Shown here in pieces: positions 590 through 51,802 of a stretch of DNA of 64,000 bases. Within the stretch, counting starts at the first letter, position 1. Each line of letters starts with the position of its first letter. The position numbers and the translations under genes are program-made. This stretch comes from Podarcis liolepis (taxonomy: Eukaryota): assembly GCA_965112155.1 (NCBI GenBank), contig OZ218114.1, one strand, 5' to 3'. The notes below the pieces were generated by a model. That model was not told the DNA's origin and searched no databases. It saw nothing but the letters and a program-made list of their open reading frames with translations.

Positions 590-1602
590 AAAATGCATAG
601 GCTGGTTTGGGGCTCAGAAAGGAAGCACAGTGCTCTGTAGCTGCGCTTGAACTCTTACAAGCCAGGAAGTCCAAAAAGGTTTCCACATGATGGCAAATCG
701 AAAGGGCCAAAGTTTCTTTCCATTGCACTGAAATAAGCAGACATGAATTCTGAGAATGCCCATTTGGAGCAATACTAAAGGAGTCCAAGGAGAAGGCAAG
801 ACAAAATGCTGACAGGAGTGAAGTTGGGAGGGGTGGGAAGGAGAAAGAAAGCTGTGGGCACTAACCCGCCTTTTAGGTAGAACTTGGTGGTTTGGCAGTT
901 TGGCATTTAGCTAGGAGAAAATGCTCCCTGACCAGCCCTCAGCCCTGCTGAGTTGTGTGCTCTGCACAGTGGGCTCATTTGTACCTCACTCTCAGCAGAC
1001 CTGCACCTTCGAACAGCTGCATCATGGGAGAACAGCTAGGGAAAGCAACTTTTTCGAGCGTTTAGAAGAGTTTGTTTCTGTCTTAGTATTGATTAAATAA
1101 AGCCAAATAACACACACTTCCTGCTCTTTGTGTTATGTATATGCCCTGCGATTAAACAGAAACATCGAACTGAAGATATACCCAAGCTGGAGCACTTCAA
1201 CGGCTGCTCTAAGAGCAAGGGTGATCTCCAACTCTTAAGCCCCGGCAGCTCGGAAGCCTGAGTCAGTTTTAACAAATAAGATGGGAACAACGTTATCTTT
1301 CTCTGGTCACTGCCCCAGGGTCTTCCTTTTCCTCGGGTGTCATTTCCTGTTGTGACTAATTTTAAGCCATCTGCTCCCTTTGGGCTCACTCGCTACTGCA
1401 GCTGGTCGCAGGAAAGTTGCCTCATTTCACGTCACCCAGCAGATGCAGTAACGGGAAAGCTGAGCACCAGATGACAGAAATGAAAAAGTCAGGCGTCTCA
1501 GCCCAAGGTTTCTGCCCAGTGCCAGTAAGTTAAAACTACTGTGTTCAGAAGCCATGGTGCAAAACTGCACAGGCACAGATTAAAGGGCACAGGGACCCTG
1601 TT

Positions 1603-1896
1603 GAGAATGGGCCTTGCATCTCCACCCTGCCTTATTTCACTTGTGTGATCCCCACATCCTAACGTGCAGCATTCCAGAAGCCCTGGTTCTCTCAGGATGG
1701 GCAAATCTGCTACAGTCAGAGCTTATCCCCCAGCTTCAAAAATCACCATCACCCCCATTTCTTTTGATGAGGGAATGTGAACACCCACCCACAGAACAAG
1801 GCTGGCACTGTCTTCACAGGGAGATGCTTCATCACAGGTCAGACAATTTGTCCACCTAACCTAGTATTGCCAGCTCTGGCTGGCAGTGTCTCCCCA
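1603..1896 (+). repeat. Left copy of the 294-bp direct duplication flanking the L1
   Basis: Identical to 4486-4779 except at 1625/4508 (C/T) and 1699/4582 (G/A). Confidence 0.95.
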
Positions 1897-4485
1897 CTGA
1901 AGGAATGGTTGACTGAAGGAATGGTTGACTCAACCACTAAGAGAAGTTTGTAATGAGATCCTTGAGGGAAAAAGGGCACCTGAATCGTGGAAAGAGGCAT
2001 ATATTTCACTCATACCAAAGTCAGAGACTGAAAAGACCCAACTCAAGAACTACCGCCCAATATCACTCCTTAATGTGGATTACAAAATTTTTGCAGACAT
2101 TTTGGCAAAAAGATTTAAAAGAGTTTTGATGGAGAAGATTCATAAGGACCAAGCAGGTTTTCTCCCTAAAAGACACCTGGCAGACAATGTAAGGAATGTA
2201 ATAGACATTCTGGAAAAGCTAGAGGTGAATATAAACACTAAAGCAGTATTGATTTTTGTGGACGCGGAGAAAGCCTTTGACAATATTTCTTGGAGTTTTA
2301 TGAGGAAGAATCTTCATGGGATGGGGGTGGGCCAGGGTTTTGAGAATGGTATGGCTGCAATATATTCTGAACAAAAAGCTAAACTGATTGTAAACAATGT
2401 TGTGACTGAGGAACTCAAGATAGAAAAAGGAACACGACAGGGGTGCCCGATTTCCCCATTACTTTTTATTTCAGTTCTGGAGGTGTTGCTGAATATGATA
2501 AGAAATGACCAGCAGGTCAAAGGTGTGCAGGTCGGAGCTAAACATTATAAGTTAAGAGCGTTTGCAGATGACCTAGTATTGACTTTGCAAGAGCCAAACA
2601 CTAGTACGAAAAAGGTTTTAGAAATAATACAACAGTTTGGCCAGGTAGCTGGATTTAAGTTGAACAAGCAAAAAACTAAAGTCTTAGGGAAAAACTTAAC
2701 AGATATGGAAAAGGAGAAATTTCAAGAGGAAACAGGTTTGACTGTGGTAAAGAAGGTGAAATATCTAGGGGTTTACTTAACATCTAAGAATGTGAACTTG
2801 TATAAGGACAACTATGAAAAATGTTGGTCAGAAATTAAAAAAGATCTAGAAATATGGTCAAATTTGAAATTGTCAATGTTAGGCCGAATTGCAGTAATTA
2901 AAATGAATGTATTGCCTAGAGTGTTATTTTTGTTTCAGACCTTGCAGATTCTTGACAAGATGGAATGTTTTAAGAGGTGGCACAAAGACATTTCGAAATT
3001 TGTCTGGCAGGGCAAAAAGCCCCGAATTAAATTTAAGATATTGACAGATGTTAAAGAAAGAGGGGGTTTTGCCCTGCCGGACCTAAAATTGTACTATGAG
3101 GCAGCAGCTTTTTGCTGGCTGAAAGAATGGATGCTCCTCGAGAATACGGACATCTTGGATCTGGAAGGTTTTAATAACGCTTTTGGTTGGCATGCATATC
3201 TTTGGTATGATAAAGTTAACAGTGCCTTTAAAAATCATATTGTCAGAAAAGCATTGTTTAATGTTTGGATAAGATATAAAGATCTATTGGAAAATAAAAC
3301 CCCTAGATGGGTGTCACCAGTGGAGGCTAAAGCAGTGAAGAAGCTCAATATGGAGGTCGGATGGCCGAAGTATTGGGAAATTTTAGAACAGGATGGAGAT
3401 AAGTTCAAACTACAAAGTCAGGAGAAATTGAAGCATAAAGTAGAAAATTGGTTCCAATATCGTCAAATAATGGAATTTTTTAAACAGGACAGGAAAATCG
3501 GTTTCCAGGTGGAAAAATCAAAATTAGAAACCGAACTGTTAGAACCCAATACTAAGAATTTATCTAGAATGTACAACTTGCCGTTGAAATGGAACACACA
3601 GGATGAAACAGTTAAATCGGCTATGATTAAGTGGGCTCAGGATGTTGGACATAACATTATGTCAGCTGACTGGGAATGGTTATGGAACACCGGTATTAAA
3701 TTTACGGCATGTAATGCCTTAAAGGAAAACATTATGAAAATGGTATACAGGTGGTACATGACCCCAGTCAAGCTGGCAAAAATCTATCATTTGCCCGATA
3801 ATAAATGTTGGAAGTGTAAAGAGACTGAAGGTACCTTCTATCACCTTTGGTGGACATGCCCGAAGATTAAGGCCTTCTGGGAAATGATCTATAATGAAAT
3901 GAAAAAGGTACTTAAATATACCTTTCCTAAAAAACCAGAGGCCTTTCTCTTGGGCATTGTCGGCCAATTGGTGACAAAGAAAGATAGAATCTTTTTTATG
4001 TATGCCACAACAGCAGCAAGAATACTCATCGCAAAGTATTGGAAGACACAAGATTTACCCACTGTGGAAGAATGGCAGATGAAAGTGATGGACTATATGA
4101 CACTGGCCGAGATGACAGGCAGAATCCGTGACCAACGAAAAGAGACGGTGGAAGAAGAGTGGAAAAAATTTAAAAGCTATCTTAAGGACTACTATAAACT
4201 TAATGAATGTTAAAATGTTGTGGTTTCTAGAAGCAAAAGGGTACAGGGATACAAGGCTAGACTATAAAAGAGGACTAAGATGATAAAGATTGGAAAGTAA
4301 CAATTGGGAGTTGCTTGTTGAATTTTGGACATTGGGATGCAGAGAGGGGGGGTATGGGGAAGTCCAAGAAAAGAGGTTTATGAAAATATGTTTGAAATTA
4401 TACGTGTATGTTTGTCATTTTTAGTGTTTGTTTGTTTTTCTTAAAAGTGTTGTAAAATCAATAAAAATTTTATAAAAAAAAAAAA
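1897..4485 (+). mobile_element. L1-clade LINE, 5'-truncated, young, antisense within JAM3 intron 7
   Basis: Uninterrupted ORF2 remainder, 3' UTR, AATAAA at 4460-4465, poly(A) at 4474-4485. Target site TT/GAGA. Confidence 0.95.
1925..4213 (+). CDS. L1 ORF2 fragment: reverse transcriptase plus C-terminal CCHC; endonuclease domain missing
   Basis: Motifs YRPISLLNVDYK, DQAGF, DAEKAFD, GTRQGCPISPLLF, FADD and CWKC...HLWWTC. 762 codons without a stop. Probably not expressed, since the 5' part is missing. Confidence 0.9.
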   Translation: MTQPLREVCNEILEGKRAPESWKEAYISLIPKSETEKTQLKNYRPISLLNVDYKIFADILAKRFKRVLMEKIHKDQAGFLPKRHLADNVRNVIDILEKLEVNINTKAVLIFVDAEKAFDNISWSFMRKNLHGMGVGQGFENGMAAIYSEQKAKLIVNNVVTEELKIEKGTRQGCPISPLLFISVLEVLLNMIRNDQQVKGVQVGAKHYKLRAFADDLVLTLQEPNTSTKKVLEIIQQFGQVAGFKLNKQKTKVLGKNLTDMEKEKFQEETGLTVVKKVKYLGVYLTSKNVNLYKDNYEKCWSEIKKDLEIWSNLKLSMLGRIAVIKMNVLPRVLFLFQTLQILDKMECFKRWHKDISKFVWQGKKPRIKFKILTDVKERGGFALPDLKLYYEAAAFCWLKEWMLLENTDILDLEGFNNAFGWHAYLWYDKVNSAFKNHIVRKALFNVWIRYKDLLENKTPRWVSPVEAKAVKKLNMEVGWPKYWEILEQDGDKFKLQSQEKLKHKVENWFQYRQIMEFFKQDRKIGFQVEKSKLETELLEPNTKNLSRMYNLPLKWNTQDETVKSAMIKWAQDVGHNIMSADWEWLWNTGIKFTACNALKENIMKMVYRWYMTPVKLAKIYHLPDNKCWKCKETEGTFYHLWWTCPKIKAFWEMIYNEMKKVLKYTFPKKPEAFLLGIVGQLVTKKDRIFFMYATTAARILIAKYWKTQDLPTVEEWQMKVMDYMTLAEMTGRIRDQRKETVEEEWKKFKSYLKDYYKLNEC

Positions 4486-4779
4486 GAGAATGGGCCTTGC
4501 ATCTCCATCCTGCCTTATTTCACTTGTGTGATCCCCACATCCTAACGTGCAGCATTCCAGAAGCCCTGGTTCTCTCAGGATAGGCAAATCTGCTACAGTC
4601 AGAGCTTATCCCCCAGCTTCAAAAATCACCATCACCCCCATTTCTTTTGATGAGGGAATGTGAACACCCACCCACAGAACAAGGCTGGCACTGTCTTCAC
4701 AGGGAGATGCTTCATCACAGGTCAGACAATTTGTCCACCTAACCTAGTATTGCCAGCTCTGGCTGGCAGTGTCTCCCCA
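4486..4779 (+). repeat. Right copy of the 294-bp direct duplication flanking the L1
   Basis: Begins immediately after the poly(A) and matches 1603-1896. Confidence 0.95.
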
Positions 4780-4928
4780 GGGTTCTCAAGTAGAAACAGA
4801 CTTTTCCCATCAGCTGGCAAACAGATCCTTTTAAACTAGAGATTCTTTGAACTGGACCTGAGACTTTCTGCATGCAGAAGAACACACTCATTGCCACTGA
4901 CTTGTCGTCCCTCCCACACTTTGAAATA

Positions 4929-5170
4929 CAGTGGTACCTCGGGTTACATACGCTTCAGGTTACATACGCTTCAGGTTACAGACTCTGCTAACCCAGAAAT
5001 AGTACCTCGGGTTAAGAACTTTGCTTCAGGATGAGAACAGAAATCATGCTCTGACAGCGTGGCAGCAGCGGGCGGCCCCATTAGCTAAAGTGGTGCTTCA
5101 GGTTAAGAACAGTTTCAGGTTAAGAACAGACCTCCGGAACGAATTAAGTACTTAACCCAAGGTACCACTG
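4929..5170 (+). mobile_element. Tc1/mariner-type MITE, family A
   Basis: TIRs CAGTGGTACCTC...GGTACCACTG, TA flanks, internal CTTCAGGTTA repeats. Siblings at 19708 and 51297. Confidence 0.88.
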
Positions 5171-5172
5171 TA

Positions 5173-5432
5173 CAATCATACCTCATGTTACGTTTGCTTC
5201 ATGTTACGTTCTTTCTGGTTACGTCCCGCGGCAACCCAGAAGTACCAGAAAGGGTTACTTCCAGGTCTCGCCGCTCGTACATGCGCAGAAACGCAGAATG
5301 ACGTAATGCGCATGCACAGAAGCAATGAATTGCAACCCGTGCATGCGCAGACGCGCCACTGCAGGTTGCACTCTTTTCATGTTGCGAACGTGCCACCGGA
5401 ACAGATCCTGTTCACAACCAGAGGTACCACTG
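5173..5432. mobile_element. Tc1/mariner-type MITE, family B, abutting family A
   Basis: Ends CAATCATACCTC / GAGGTACCACTG, TA flanks, internal GCGCATGC palindromes. Relative at 51541. Confidence 0.8.
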
Positions 5433-5800
5433 TAGCAATATCGTCAAGGATCGTTTCCTTTAATGTTTCTCCAATGTTTTAATGTTTCTCTCCATTCAAA
5501 GTAGGGAGAGTAGGCCACTGCTTGTGCTTCTGTCGGAAGGCAGCTGCCTATGTGAGCTGACTGTCCTGCAGCCATTGGGAGTGCCCCTTTGTTAGAATTC
5601 TTTTACCTTGTGTAATGAGCGCTCAGTTCATTGCACCAGATTTGAGGCATTTGCTCTTTAAAGCAGTTGGCCTTACATGCAACCCAGTCCCATGTGTGCA
5701 TGCAGATTGGCTTTAATCACATGGTCTTTCGCTCCCTCTGCTGAGAGAAAATCACCTGGGGGGAAAGCAGTGAGATGAGGAATCAGTTGCTTAGGCTTAC

Positions 5801-5930
5801 CTATTTCCATTTTGCTTGTTATTCACAAATAATCCCTTCCTGTAGGCGCAGCAGATTCCCACCGTAGTCAGCAAGAGGACAGCGAGGACCACCATGACCC
5901 CTCCAACAATCCCAGCAATGTTAAGGTCAT
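5801..5930 (-). CDS. JAM3: JAM3 exon 7 (transmembrane and juxtamembrane: YDLNIAGIVGGVMVVLAVLLLTTVGICCAYRKGLFVNNKQNGN)
   Basis: CAG acceptor, GTAAGC donor, 130 nt. GICCAYR and NNKQ are characteristic of JAM-C. No exons for the PDZ-binding tail were found in the window. Confidence 0.97.
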
Positions 5931-6041
5931 CTGGAGGAGAAAAGACAGCCATGAACATCCAGCCCCTGCTTGTTTGCAGGGGAAAGAATGCATCCTGAAC
6001 ATCAGCAAAAAAAACACCCCTGCCCCACTTCCTAGACTCAC

Positions 6042-6141
6042 AGACTTCCATCTCCATCTCCTCGCACCAGGCATCGCCCACGGCATTCGTCGCTCTACAG
6101 GTGTAACGGCCCGTGTCTCCTTTTTGCACTTCGCTGAAGAC
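6042..6141 (-). CDS. JAM3: JAM3 exon 6 (VFSEVQKGDTGRYTCRATNAVGDAWCEEMEMEV)
   Basis: CAG acceptor, GTGAGT donor, 100 nt, DxGxYxC motif. Separated from exon 7 by a 111-bp intron. Confidence 0.97.
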
Positions 6142-12221: not shown

Positions 12222-13673
12222 CAGTGGTGCCTCGCAAGACGAAATTAATTCGTTCCGCAAGTTTTTTCTTCTTGCGGGTTTTTCGTCTTGCGAAGCACGG
12301 TTTCCCATAGGAATGCATTGAAAATCAATTAATGCGTTCCTAGGGAAACCGCTTGCCAGGCTGGCGGTGCGGAGAAGGGCTTTTCTCCGCACCGCAAGCC
12401 TTCAGCACAGGTACGGGAACAGAGGGGAAGGGGCGCAGCGCTTTCCCTCTGTTCCCGGGGCTTGCGTGGGAGGAGGGTTTTTCCTCCCCACCGCCAACAT
12501 TCAGAACAGCATTCAGAATGTTGGCGGTGGGAAGGAAAACCCTCCTCCCACCCCAAGTCTTCAGGAAAGCCATCCGATGCCGGGCGGCGGGAGAAGGCTT
12601 TCCCCCTCCCGGCATCGGAGCTTCGTCCCGATGCCGCGCGGCGGGGGGAGACGTTCCCCCTCCGCCGCCGGGCATCGGGGCTTCGTCCCGATGCCACGCG
12701 GCGGGGGGAGAAGTTCCCCCTCCGCCGCCCGGCATCGGGGCTTCCTCCCGATGCCGCGCGGCGGGGGGAGACGTTCCCCCTCCGCCGCCCGGCACCGGGG
12801 CTTCGTCCCGATGCCGCGCGACGGCGGGAGGCTTTCCCCCTCCGCCGCCCGGCACCGGGGCTTCGTCCCGATGCCGCGCGGCGGCGGGAGGCTTTCCCCC
12901 TCCGCCGCCCGGCACCGGGGCTTCGTCCCGATGCCGCGCGGCGGCGGGAGGCTTTCCCCCTCCGCCGCCCGGCACCGGGGCTTCGTCCCGATGCCGCGCG
13001 GCGGCGGGAGGCTTTCCCCCTCCGCCGCCCGGCACCGGGGCTTCGTCCCGATGCCGCGCGGCGGCGGGAGGCTTTCCCCCTCCGCCGCCCGGCACCGGGG
13101 CTTCGTCCCGATGCCGCGCGGCGGCGGGAGGCTTTCCCCCTCCGCCGCCCGGTACCGGGGCTTCGTCCCGATGCCGCGCGGCGGCGGGAGGCTTTCCCCC
13201 TCCGCCGCCCGGCATCTGGGCTTCGTCCCGATGCCGCGCGGCGGGGGGAGCCGTTCCCCCTCCGCCGCCCGGCACCGGGGCTTCGTCCCGATGCCGCGCG
13301 GCGGCGGGAGGCTTTCCCCCTCCGCCGCCCGGCACCGGGGCTTCGTTCCGAAGCCGCGCGGCGGCGGGAGGCTTTCCCCCTCCGCCGCCCGGCACCTGGG
13401 CTTCGTCCCGATGCCGCGCGGCGGGAGGAGGCTTTCCCCCTCCGCCGCCGGGCATCGGAGCTTCGTTCCGAAGCCGGCGGCGGGAGGAGGTCCGAGGACA
13501 GTGGGGAAGACGCGCTGCGCTTCCCCGCTGTCCCTGAGATTTCCCTATGGGCTGTCGTCTTGCGAAGCAAGCCCATAGGGAAATTCGTTTTGCGAAGCGC
13601 CTCCAAAACGGAAAACCCTTTCGTCTAGCGGGTTTTCCGTCTTGCGAGGCGTTCGTCTTGCGGGGTACCACTG
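12222..13673. mobile_element. Tc1/mariner-type MITE, family C, carrying a GC-rich minisatellite (JAM3 intron 2)
   Basis: TIRs CAGTGGTGCCTCGCAAGACGAA / TTCGTCTTGCGGGGTACCACTG with TA flanks. Same ends as 44069-44483. Confidence 0.92.
12573..13490. repeat. 60-bp GC-rich minisatellite, about 15 units
   Basis: Unit TCCGCCGCCCGGCACCGGGGCTTCGTCCCGATGCCGCGCGGCGGCGGGAGGCTTTCCCCC repeats in exact register with the 60-nt sequence lines. Confidence 0.97.
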
Positions 13674-19600: not shown

Positions 19601-19707
19601 TGTTCAAATAACTGTGCAAACATGGACACACAGATTTTGTCAAATCAAAGCTGGCCCATTCTCATGTGCACTGCAAAATTACATGCCCCCCAAACTTCCC
19701 ACAAATA

Positions 19708-19938
19708 CAGTGATACCTCAGGTTAAGAACTTAATTCGTTCTGGAGGTCCGTTCTTAACCTGAAACTGTTCTTAACCTGAAGTACCACTTTAGCTAATGG
19801 GGCCTCCCACTGCCGCCATACGATTTCTGTTCTCATCCTGAAGCAAAGTTCTTAATCCAAGGTACTATTTCTGGGTTAGCGGAGTCTGTAACCTGAAGCG
19901 TCTGTAACCTGAAGCATCTGTAACCTGAGGTACCACTG
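19708..19938 (-). mobile_element. Tc1/mariner-type MITE, family A, inverted relative to the 4929 copy
   Basis: Reverse complement aligns with 4929-5170. TA flanks. Confidence 0.88.
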
Positions 19939-21442
19939 TACAAAATCACATATATATACATACACACACACATGCATGCATGCAAAGATCTTTTCTGGGC
20001 TCTTTTGTTGTCTGGAAAATATTACAAATCAGATATTCATGCCAAGAACCAGAAATCCATCAGAATAATCTATGAAAGGAACATCAACAGCAGGAAAAGA
20101 AATTGTTAGGAAACAAAAAGAGCTTTCAAGCGGAAAGAACTTGGGAAAATGAAAAGTATTTCCTACTCAGTTGTGGACCCCACCCTGCCTGACACTCCTA
20201 TATTAGGGCTGTGTTCCCTGCCAGAAATCCCATAATTAGTCTAGCATGAAAGGAGTTAAAAACTGCCTCACCAAAGCAAAGTCAAAACAGAGCATTTAGC
20301 AATAGAGACAAATTCTTCCAAATCCTCAAGCTCCTTGTCCCCTTGCTCTCTCCTGCTATTTTTAGCCTTGTGTTTTCCAAATGTGCCAAGTGTTCCTTAT
20401 GTTATCACTGTCAGAGGCCCCCTTTTCCCACAGTCACTCGGCTCGCGCCCTGGGATGAAGCAAAACTACCCCTGCGTTCATGGTTTGGCCTCAAATGTTG
20501 AGGTGCCGTCATTACTTAGCGAGCAAAGGGCATTTCAGCAAATCCACATCAGCGCTATGATCACATTTATTTGACAGTTAATTCTAAATGCATGCATAAC
20601 CCCGGTCAGCAACTCATTATTAACCTGGCCATGTTTTGAATTGTAAAGGGGTCATAGGAAGCTGCCTTATACTGAGCAAGACCACTGATGTATCTAGATC
20701 AGTATTGCCCACACTGGCTGGCAGCAGCTCTCCACGATTTCAGACAAGGGACCTTCCCATTCCTATCTTATTCATTTATTGCATTGCATTGTATTGCACC
20801 CTTTTCTCCAAGGACCTCAAGGCGATGTACGTGGTCCCTCCCTCCTTCATTTAATCCCCACAACAACCCTGTGACGTAAGTTAGGCTGAGAGACAGTGAC
20901 TGACCCAAGGTCACCCGCTGAGCTTTGTGGCCAGAGCTGAGATCTGAGCTCTGGTCTCCCAGGACTTTAACCACTACATCATACTGGATCTCTGGAGACG
21001 CCAGAGATCAAACCCGGGACTTCCTGCATTAAAAGCACTAAGTTTCAGCCTTCCTCAGGACAGCCGAAGAGCAGACACAGCTGCCAACTGAGTCATTCTC
21101 ACACAAACTGAAGTGGCACAAAGGACTCTTCAACTCCCCACGAACAGCAACAGTGGTTTTGGCACAGAGGCCTCCCTCCCTGCTGTGTGCATCACAGCTA
21201 TGGAGGCTTGTAAACAGCATCTTGTTCTCACAGCGGCCAACCAGATGCCTGTGGCAAAACCTGCAAGCAGGACCAGAGTCCTCTCCCATCGTTTCCAGCA
21301 ACTGGTCTTCAGAAGCATTGCTGCCTCCAACTGAGGAGGCAGGAGGCAGAGAATAGCTACTGTGGCTAGTAGCCATTGATATCCATTTGTCTCATCCCCT
21401 TTTAAAGCCATCCAAGTTGGTGGCCATCATTGCTTCCCATGG

Positions 21443-51094: not shown

Positions 51095-51296
51095 CACAGA
51101 TCTTCAACCAGTGGGTTGGGAAGTACAGGTGGGTCGTGAGGCAATCCAAGATGGGTCACAGCAAAGCCACTGCTGCCATGTTGGACTCCATCTAAGGCTG
51201 ACCAAACCAAAGGACACTGCGTGCGGTGTCTGGGATATAAAATTTTACCATTTTTATCAATTATCTGTGCTATTAAATTTAAATCAAAAGTGAATA

Positions 51297-51538
51297 CACT
51301 GGTACCTCAGGTTACATACGCTTCAGGTTACATATGCTTCAGGTTACAGACTCCGCTAACCCAGAAATAGTGCTTCAGGTTAAGAACTTTGCTGCAGGAT
51401 GAGAACAGAAATCATGCTCCGGTGCAGCGGCGGCAGCAGGAGGCCCCATTAGCTAAAGTGGTGCTTCAGGTTAAGAACAGTTTCAGGTTAAGAACGGACC
51501 TCCGGAATGAATTAAGTACTTAACCCGAGGTACCACTG
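51297..51538 (+). mobile_element. Tc1/mariner-type MITE, family A
   Basis: Aligns with 4929-5170. Confidence 0.88.
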
Positions 51539-51540
51539 CA

Positions 51541-51802
51541 CAGTGGTATCTCGGGATGTGACCGGGAGCCCTGTTCTGGAGCCCCATTCGCATCCCAAAC
51601 AGAACGTAAGACGCGACAGCATGTCTGCGTGTGCGCAGGTCGGGTTTCACAGCTTCCGCGCATGCGTGTGGCATCATTTTGACCGTCTGCGCATGTGTGA
51701 GCAGCGAAACCCGGAAGTAACACACTCCATTACTTCCGGGTTGCCGCAGAGCGCAACCCAAAAGCACTCAACTTGAAGCGTATTTATCCCAAAGTATGAC
51801 TG
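51541..51802. mobile_element. Tc1/mariner-type MITE, family B, abutting family A
   Basis: Ends CAGTGGTATCTC / AAGTATGACTG-TA. Opposite orientation to the 5173 copy. Confidence 0.78.

Follow-up and report, generated by a model that had tools for sequence, protein, structure and literature searches.

Structure of the locus

The window, i.e. the whole 64,000-nt stretch of Podarcis liolepis DNA analysed here (contig OZ218114.1), contains no N letters and lies within a contig of 45 Mb; the assembly totals 1.57 Gb in 290 contigs. All nine JAM3 exons mapped to the minus strand, and the exons near the L1 had lacertid JAM3 as their top protein matches. Exons 6 and 7, with a short intron between them, occupy 5803..6141 (minus strand). 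Since exon 7 ends at ca. 5803 and exon 8 is situated shortly before position 1 of the window, the L1 was inserted in intron 7 of JAM3, where the preliminary description had placed it. It is antisense to the gene, and nothing in the data points to an effect on JAM3.

The L1 is flanked by a 294-nt direct repeat, the left copy of which lies at 1603..1896 and the right copy at 4486..4779 (both plus strand; 99.3% identity). Comparison of the copies confirmed the two differences reported previously, both of which are transitions (1625 C / 4508 T and 1699 G / 4582 A). The left copy carries a private T>C change at 1625, and the right copy, which runs on into the native flank, carries a private G>A change at 4582. 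Among 10 matches in a genome search, the full 294 nt was found at these two places only, and the other eight were 46- to 72-nt pieces of its last third with 78-87% identity. As full-length matches are confined to the two places, the repeat is neither a chance match nor a dispersed repeat. The end of the duplication falls within an old dispersed repeat (window ca. 4720-4900), presumably SINE-like, whose paralogous pieces are 78-87% identical.

The preliminary description had the two copies abutting the L1 5' junction and the poly(A), and both contacts proved to be exact. The end of the left copy (1896) directly adjoins the L1 start (1897) in the assembly, and the end of the poly(A) (4485) directly adjoins the start of the right copy (4486). 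The insert (plus strand throughout) begins with 16 additional nt at 1897..1912 that repeat the L1 5' end and had been overlooked before. Sequence comparison and TRF (1896-1930, period 16) showed that this L1-derived stutter is identical to 1913-1928; none of 85 other truncated copies of the L1 family has such a 5' tandem. An open 766-aa remnant of L1 ORF2 follows at 1913..4213 (residues ca. 478-1243; reverse transcriptase (RT) and C-terminal part), then the 3' UTR at 4214..4473 with AATAAA at 4460-4465, and a 12-nt poly(A) tail at 4474..4485. No microhomology between host and L1 was found at 1896/1897, where the L1 family reads ...AATCG upstream and the host ...CCCCA. The repeat and the insert are an insertion scar, for which there is no evidence of a function.

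Other repeats were observed in the window. MITE-like short elements with terminal inverted repeats (TACAGTGGTACC...) occur in several copies (4925-5174, 5196-5433, 19706-19940, and 51293-51779), one pair of which lies 150 nt to the right of the duplication. A GC-rich 60-bp minisatellite of ca. 15 copies, 94% alike, is located at 12523-13490 in JAM3 intron 2. An RT-coding LINE 3' fragment with an AAC repeat at its end occupies 95-590, and we take it to be Bov-B/RTE-like.

The L1 family and the age of the insertion

A full-length copy of the family is ca. 5975 nt long, encodes ORFs of 342 and 1243 aa, and has an A tail. The 1243-aa ORF2 of the full-length sister L041 contains PF03372 at residues 6-227 and PF00078 at 512-765, and aligns with human ORF2p from residue 5 to 1210 (E 3e-180). 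The family thus shows the features of the L1 clade, namely endonuclease and RT in ORF2, two ORFs, a length of ca. 6 kb, and poly(A), while no Pfam domain was matched by the 342-aa ORF1 at E 0.01. The best 39 other genome matches to the window L1 were all 98-99% identical, indicating that the family is young, in agreement with the preliminary description. The window L1 starts ca. 3.4 kb into the element and lacks the promoter, ORF1, and the endonuclease; it is therefore unable to move itself.

Nine diagnostic variants between 1925 and 4447 were all shared with the sub-lineage of L041, L042, and L046. Three scattered variants were shared with L059, and the other L059 variants were absent. A chimeric L1 was considered and rejected, as no breakpoint pattern was present.

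It had been proposed that the divergence of the two copies dates the insertion. The two private changes are real, but they amount to two changes in 588 sites, i.e. 0.34% per copy with a 95% range of 0.04-1.2%, and the date is correspondingly wide. The window L1 carries 11 private changes as compared to 38 sisters. Of the nine private changes that are coding, six are synonymous (33% expected), and this excess suggests that part of the changes predate the insertion and arose in an active parent. Counting all 11 as insertion age was therefore rejected, and they give an upper bound only. If 3 to 11 L1 changes postdate the insertion, 0.7 to 2.5 differences between the 294-nt copies are predicted, and two were observed. 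The agreement means that insertion and duplication can be one event, although the test is loose since part of the L1 'age' precedes the insertion.

Alleles without the L1

The preliminary description had set a test beforehand, namely that an empty allele should hold the 294 nt once. Seven of 24 runs were compared with two stretches containing one repeat copy each; six of them were compared as contigs (X15, X16, X1, X2, X17, and X4) and one as raw reads (X21, shallow short reads, with zero reads on the unique part). In X16, X1, X2, X17, and X4, one uninterrupted contig each ran from the left flank through a single 294-nt segment into the right flank; two of these runs bear the same species label as the window, and three are from relatives. 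No tandem allele was observed, and the expectation was thus borne out. The empty allele of X15 was covered by two contigs overlapping at 1603-1632: the contig of the left flank runs into the T form of the 294 nt, and the next contig starts exactly at 1603.

At offsets 23 and 97 of the 294 nt, all six contig runs have T and G, respectively. Each window copy therefore carries one derived letter (1625C and 4582A). At offset 46, both window copies have A, as do X15 and X16, whereas X1, X2, X17, and X4 have C; the shared A indicates that the duplication arose on a local haplotype.

X15 was the best-matching run (0.98 of words) and may be the source sample of the window, so it is not independent, and X16 is the same sample. 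Positions 1350, 4879, and 4902 distinguish both from the window. A 53-nt contig of X15 (depth 9.65) joins the poly(A) to 4486-4515, with 22 and 30 letters on its sides, which is under the 31-letter rule applied to bridges. The letters in X15 fit three copies of the 294 nt (T-G, C-G, and T-A). The contig over the 294 nt had a depth of 27.4 and the left flank 24.5, where 28-29 was modelled for two copies and ca. 22 for one; contig depth is not copy number, and this is a weak hint towards two copies. No contig leading from 1896/1897 into the L1 was found among those listed for X15, X16, and X1, and the 5' junction is known from the assembly alone. This absence is evidence neither way because X16 also lost the poly(A) branch that was retained in X15. 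Since the junction contig of poly(A) and right copy occurs in X15 alongside an empty allele, the sample probably carries one empty and one filled allele, i.e. the insertion is heterozygous.

The suggestion that the long repeats would permit excision by recombination was also considered. No such excision was observed, and the one empty allele of the likely carrier has the pre-insertion letters. A single crossover between a C-G and a T-A copy cannot yield T-G, and we infer that this allele predates the insertion rather than resulting from excision. These observations indicate that the locus is a real, unusually long, and probably polymorphic duplication of single-copy intron DNA linked to the L1 insertion.

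Target-site duplications across the L1 family

The family-wide survey of target-site duplication (TSD) lengths called for in the preliminary description was performed on other copies of the L1 family. We examined 142 copies, picked by similarity to pieces of the L1, as 10-kb stretches; one match at a contig start was left out. Removal of L051, L123, and L183 as duplicates of other loci left 139 copies. The TSD was 9 to 23 nt in 119 of them, with a median of 17 nt. Five copies were ambiguous owing to tandem repeats (L049, L052, L058, L155, and L163), and nine gave no call. Six copies had TSDs of 51 to 587 nt, which abut both ends of the element and consist of non-tandem DNA: L177 (51 nt, contig C2), L168 (55 nt, C14), L151 (69 nt, C18), L170 (178 nt, C9), L197 (ca. 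331 nt, C2), and L145 (587 nt, C1). These six are known from the assembly sequence, and their paired copies are identical except for one mismatch in L151. TSDs of at least 50 nt thus made up 4.3% (CI 1.6-9.2) and those of at least 100 nt 2.2% (3/139, CI 0.4-6.2), in a survey blind to duplications above ca. 1.5 kb at full-length copies and above 2.5 kb elsewhere. Their frequency did not differ between full-length (2/54) and truncated copies (4/85). The 294 nt at JAM3 lies outside the usual 9-23 nt but within this long tail.

L049 and L163 were rejected as long duplications because they sit in 185- to 186-bp satellite arrays, and the L1 of L058 lies within a telomere-like TAACCC array. Other irregular loci were also observed. 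L116, L117, L188, and L189 are 5'-inverted (twin-priming type) with ordinary TSDs. L123 and L150 (C20) are a duplicated locus ca. 3 Mb apart, and the L1 of L123 is split by an insert of ca. 6.5 kb with a 9-nt overlap. Near-identical pairs of L1 and flank were L050/L051 (C8), 19 kb apart, and L165/L183 (C20), ca. 40 kb apart; these are either recent segmental duplications or assembly duplicates. L054 (C262) and L185 (C15) share the same target site with 99.7% identity in the 3' flank, and the L1 belongs to subfamily A in one and to subfamily B in the other, which may be read as whole-element gene conversion or as parallel insertion in a duplicated region.

Subfamily B is 96.4% identical to subfamily A, to which the window copy belongs. 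Long TSDs were found in 5 of 50 B copies vs 1 of 89 A copies (Fisher P = 0.023; 0.054 if L145 is left out; 0.097 if the window copy is included), a post hoc contrast in that B was sampled after L145 had been seen. The last 16 subfamily-B loci sampled yielded no further long duplication. Comparison of ORF2 between 27 A and 18 B copies revealed 14 near-fixed residue differences, of which five lie in the endonuclease; the RT core contains none of them. It is conceivable, though doubtful, that a tendency to long TSDs is inherited with the L1 enzyme and does not stem from host accidents only, with ca. 10% of germline insertions affected in B, full-length copies among them, and ca. 1% in A, and that the 14 differences include determinants of the second cut site. 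If so, A and B would together offer a natural experiment for the second-nick step of L1 insertion.

Sequences at the break sites

The preliminary description likened the cut site TT/GAGA to the TT/AAAA target of the L1 endonuclease. A first-nick matrix was built from 48 sister sites with leave-one-out scoring. The family prefers a pyrimidine followed by a purine- or A-rich run, which is looser than TT/AAAA. The top strand at the putative first (bottom-strand) nick, 1602/1603 (1600..1608, plus strand), reads GTT/GAGAAT and scored 4.83, as compared to a leave-one-out median of 2.84 for the sisters, equalling or exceeding 77% of their scores. As judged from its sequence, the putative first nick is typical for this L1 family; the likeness thus holds for the loose motif of the family and not for strict TT/AAAA.

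At the far end of the duplication (offset 294), no endonuclease motif was found (rank 129 of 691 top-strand positions), and normal TSD ends in the family have no clear motif either. The lack of a motif is consistent with, but does not prove, a top-strand break made by something other than the endonuclease. A second nick by the L1 endonuclease at an inverted TTCTC/AA, 8 nt past the duplication end, was examined and rejected, since its rank (19 of 691) is at chance level within 10 nt.

Origin of the duplication

The duplication was, in our judgement, probably made during the insertion itself, by normal target-primed reverse transcription (TPRT) that started at a bottom-strand nick and ended at a break in the top strand 294 nt further downstream, where 17 nt is the usual distance. 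The bottom strand would have been nicked at 1602/1603, the cDNA primed at the poly(A) end, and its synthesis halted inside ORF2. The top strand may then have been open at 1896/1897 because of a nick or gap that the L1 endonuclease did not make, such as a repair or replication intermediate, and the 294 bp between the breaks would have been unwound and filled in on both sides. End joining of the host 3' end to the cDNA, with one slip back over a 2- to 3-nt match (CT/ACT), could account for the 16-nt stutter. The allele would then have entered the germline, where it is probably still segregating, and each copy would have gained one transition since. We infer the steps after the first nick, and distal breakage and strand invasion are inseparable from the sequence.

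The same product is expected if the left copy was made by synthesis. In this case, the end of the cDNA or of a broken fork would have invaded the sister chromatid or the duplex itself 294 nt downstream, been extended by copying back as far as the nick, and been rejoined, with no staggered distal nick. The 16-nt stutter, which shows a slipping and re-priming polymerase at the 5' junction, and the far end devoid of an endonuclease motif fit such synthesis, and the accessible text of PMC11702581 names end processing as the cause of small tandem duplications at L1 sites. We nevertheless regard it as unlikely, since the host/L1 microhomology usual for invasion is absent at 1896/1897 and each copy carries one of the two differences, rather than the newly made copy carrying both. 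Template switching onto JAM3 pre-mRNA was rejected on strand grounds, as the transcript of a minus-strand gene does not offer the plus-strand template that the cDNA requires.

An assembly artefact, in which haplotypes were merged through the L1 or the 5' join is false, draws on the 5' junction being supported by the assembly only and on a divergence of two differences in 294 nt, which resembles that of haplotypes. It appears very unlikely: a false join requires homology, which is lacking at 1896/1897, the flank of X15 running into the T form represents an empty haplotype that offers no second L1 for a merge, and X15 also holds the poly(A) junction contig and the letters of three copies. It is highly improbable that two separate L1 insertions 294 nt apart recombined between homologues or sisters, or that two intermediates were joined, thereby duplicating the DNA between them. 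Recombination of L1 intermediates has been shown in cells (PMC13526784, in the part accessible), and the three scattered variants shared with L059 point in this direction, but the nine variants from one sub-lineage spanning 1925-4447 and the absence of the other L059 variants leave no clean chimera, and it is implausible that 7 of 140 loci were each hit twice at neighbouring sites. A pre-existing 294-nt tandem duplication, with the L1 landing exactly on its seam, is a formal possibility and nothing more; it is largely refuted by the single copy in every empty allele observed, and it would require the seam to coincide with a family-typical nick site and the same exact abutment at six other loci, making it the merest outside chance.

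Comparison with known systems

Of the steps of L1 insertion, the cutting and joining of the second strand is understood least, and duplications of very great length have been observed mostly in cultured cells. The duplication at JAM3 was inherited and is well polarised, and an initial, approximate germline rate for an L1 family of a lizard comes from the survey. The marker bases make excision testable, as 1625C or 4582A on an L1-free allele would point to an excision product. Pipelines limited to TSDs of ca. 30 bp would miss the long class, through which genomes gain small tandem duplications. A long TSD is in itself a known outcome of human L1 in culture, and the addition made here is modest, namely the germline rate for the lizard family; the family-wide long tail and the possible A/B contrast matter more than this one locus. 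In the literature searched (subscription papers and supplements lay outside it), we found no survey of long L1 TSDs in the reptile germline, which is not a claim of absence.

The papers compared below are cited from their accessible portions. Ordinary germline L1 insertions (PMC2912911 and PMC12350158) follow the same route, with a primate TSD peak at 14-16 bp as compared to 17 in the lizard. Most insertions in the human long-read cohort of PMC12350158 have TSDs of 10-20 bp, and the portions consulted give no rate for a long tail. Kojima 2010 (PMC2912911) collected TSDs of 5-30 bp only, long ones having earlier been attributed to peculiarities of HeLa cells. The zebrafish element ZfL2-2 in DT40 cells has a rare class of long TSDs of >20 bp (PMC2666801). 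It resembles the lizard family in that the target is altered according to where the second strand is cleaved and long TSDs are rare, but it belongs to the L2 clade and was studied in cultured cells. Polymorphic HERV-K (HML-2) sites with TSDs of 250 and 111 bp (PMC5488345) are likewise inherited polymorphic insertions with TSDs of similar size, but they arise by integrase-based retroviral insertion and not by TPRT.

The closest description in the accessible text is that of Servant et al. (PMC5223499, citing Gilbert 2002/2005 and Symer 2002), who reported TSDs of >100 bp in <10% of L1 events in HeLa cells and in 57-91% in NER-deficient cells, put forward a distal-nick model, and already suggested loss through recombination between long TSDs. 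The human events share with the JAM3 locus the poly(A), an endonuclease-type first nick, 5' truncation, and a duplication of hundreds of bp. The frequency of TSDs of >100 bp in HeLa cells (<10%) compares with 3/139 in the lizard family (2.2%, CI 0.4-6.2). Unlike the human events, the lizard events are inherited, the window insertion is old enough to have gained substitutions, and two of the six other long cases flank full-length elements.
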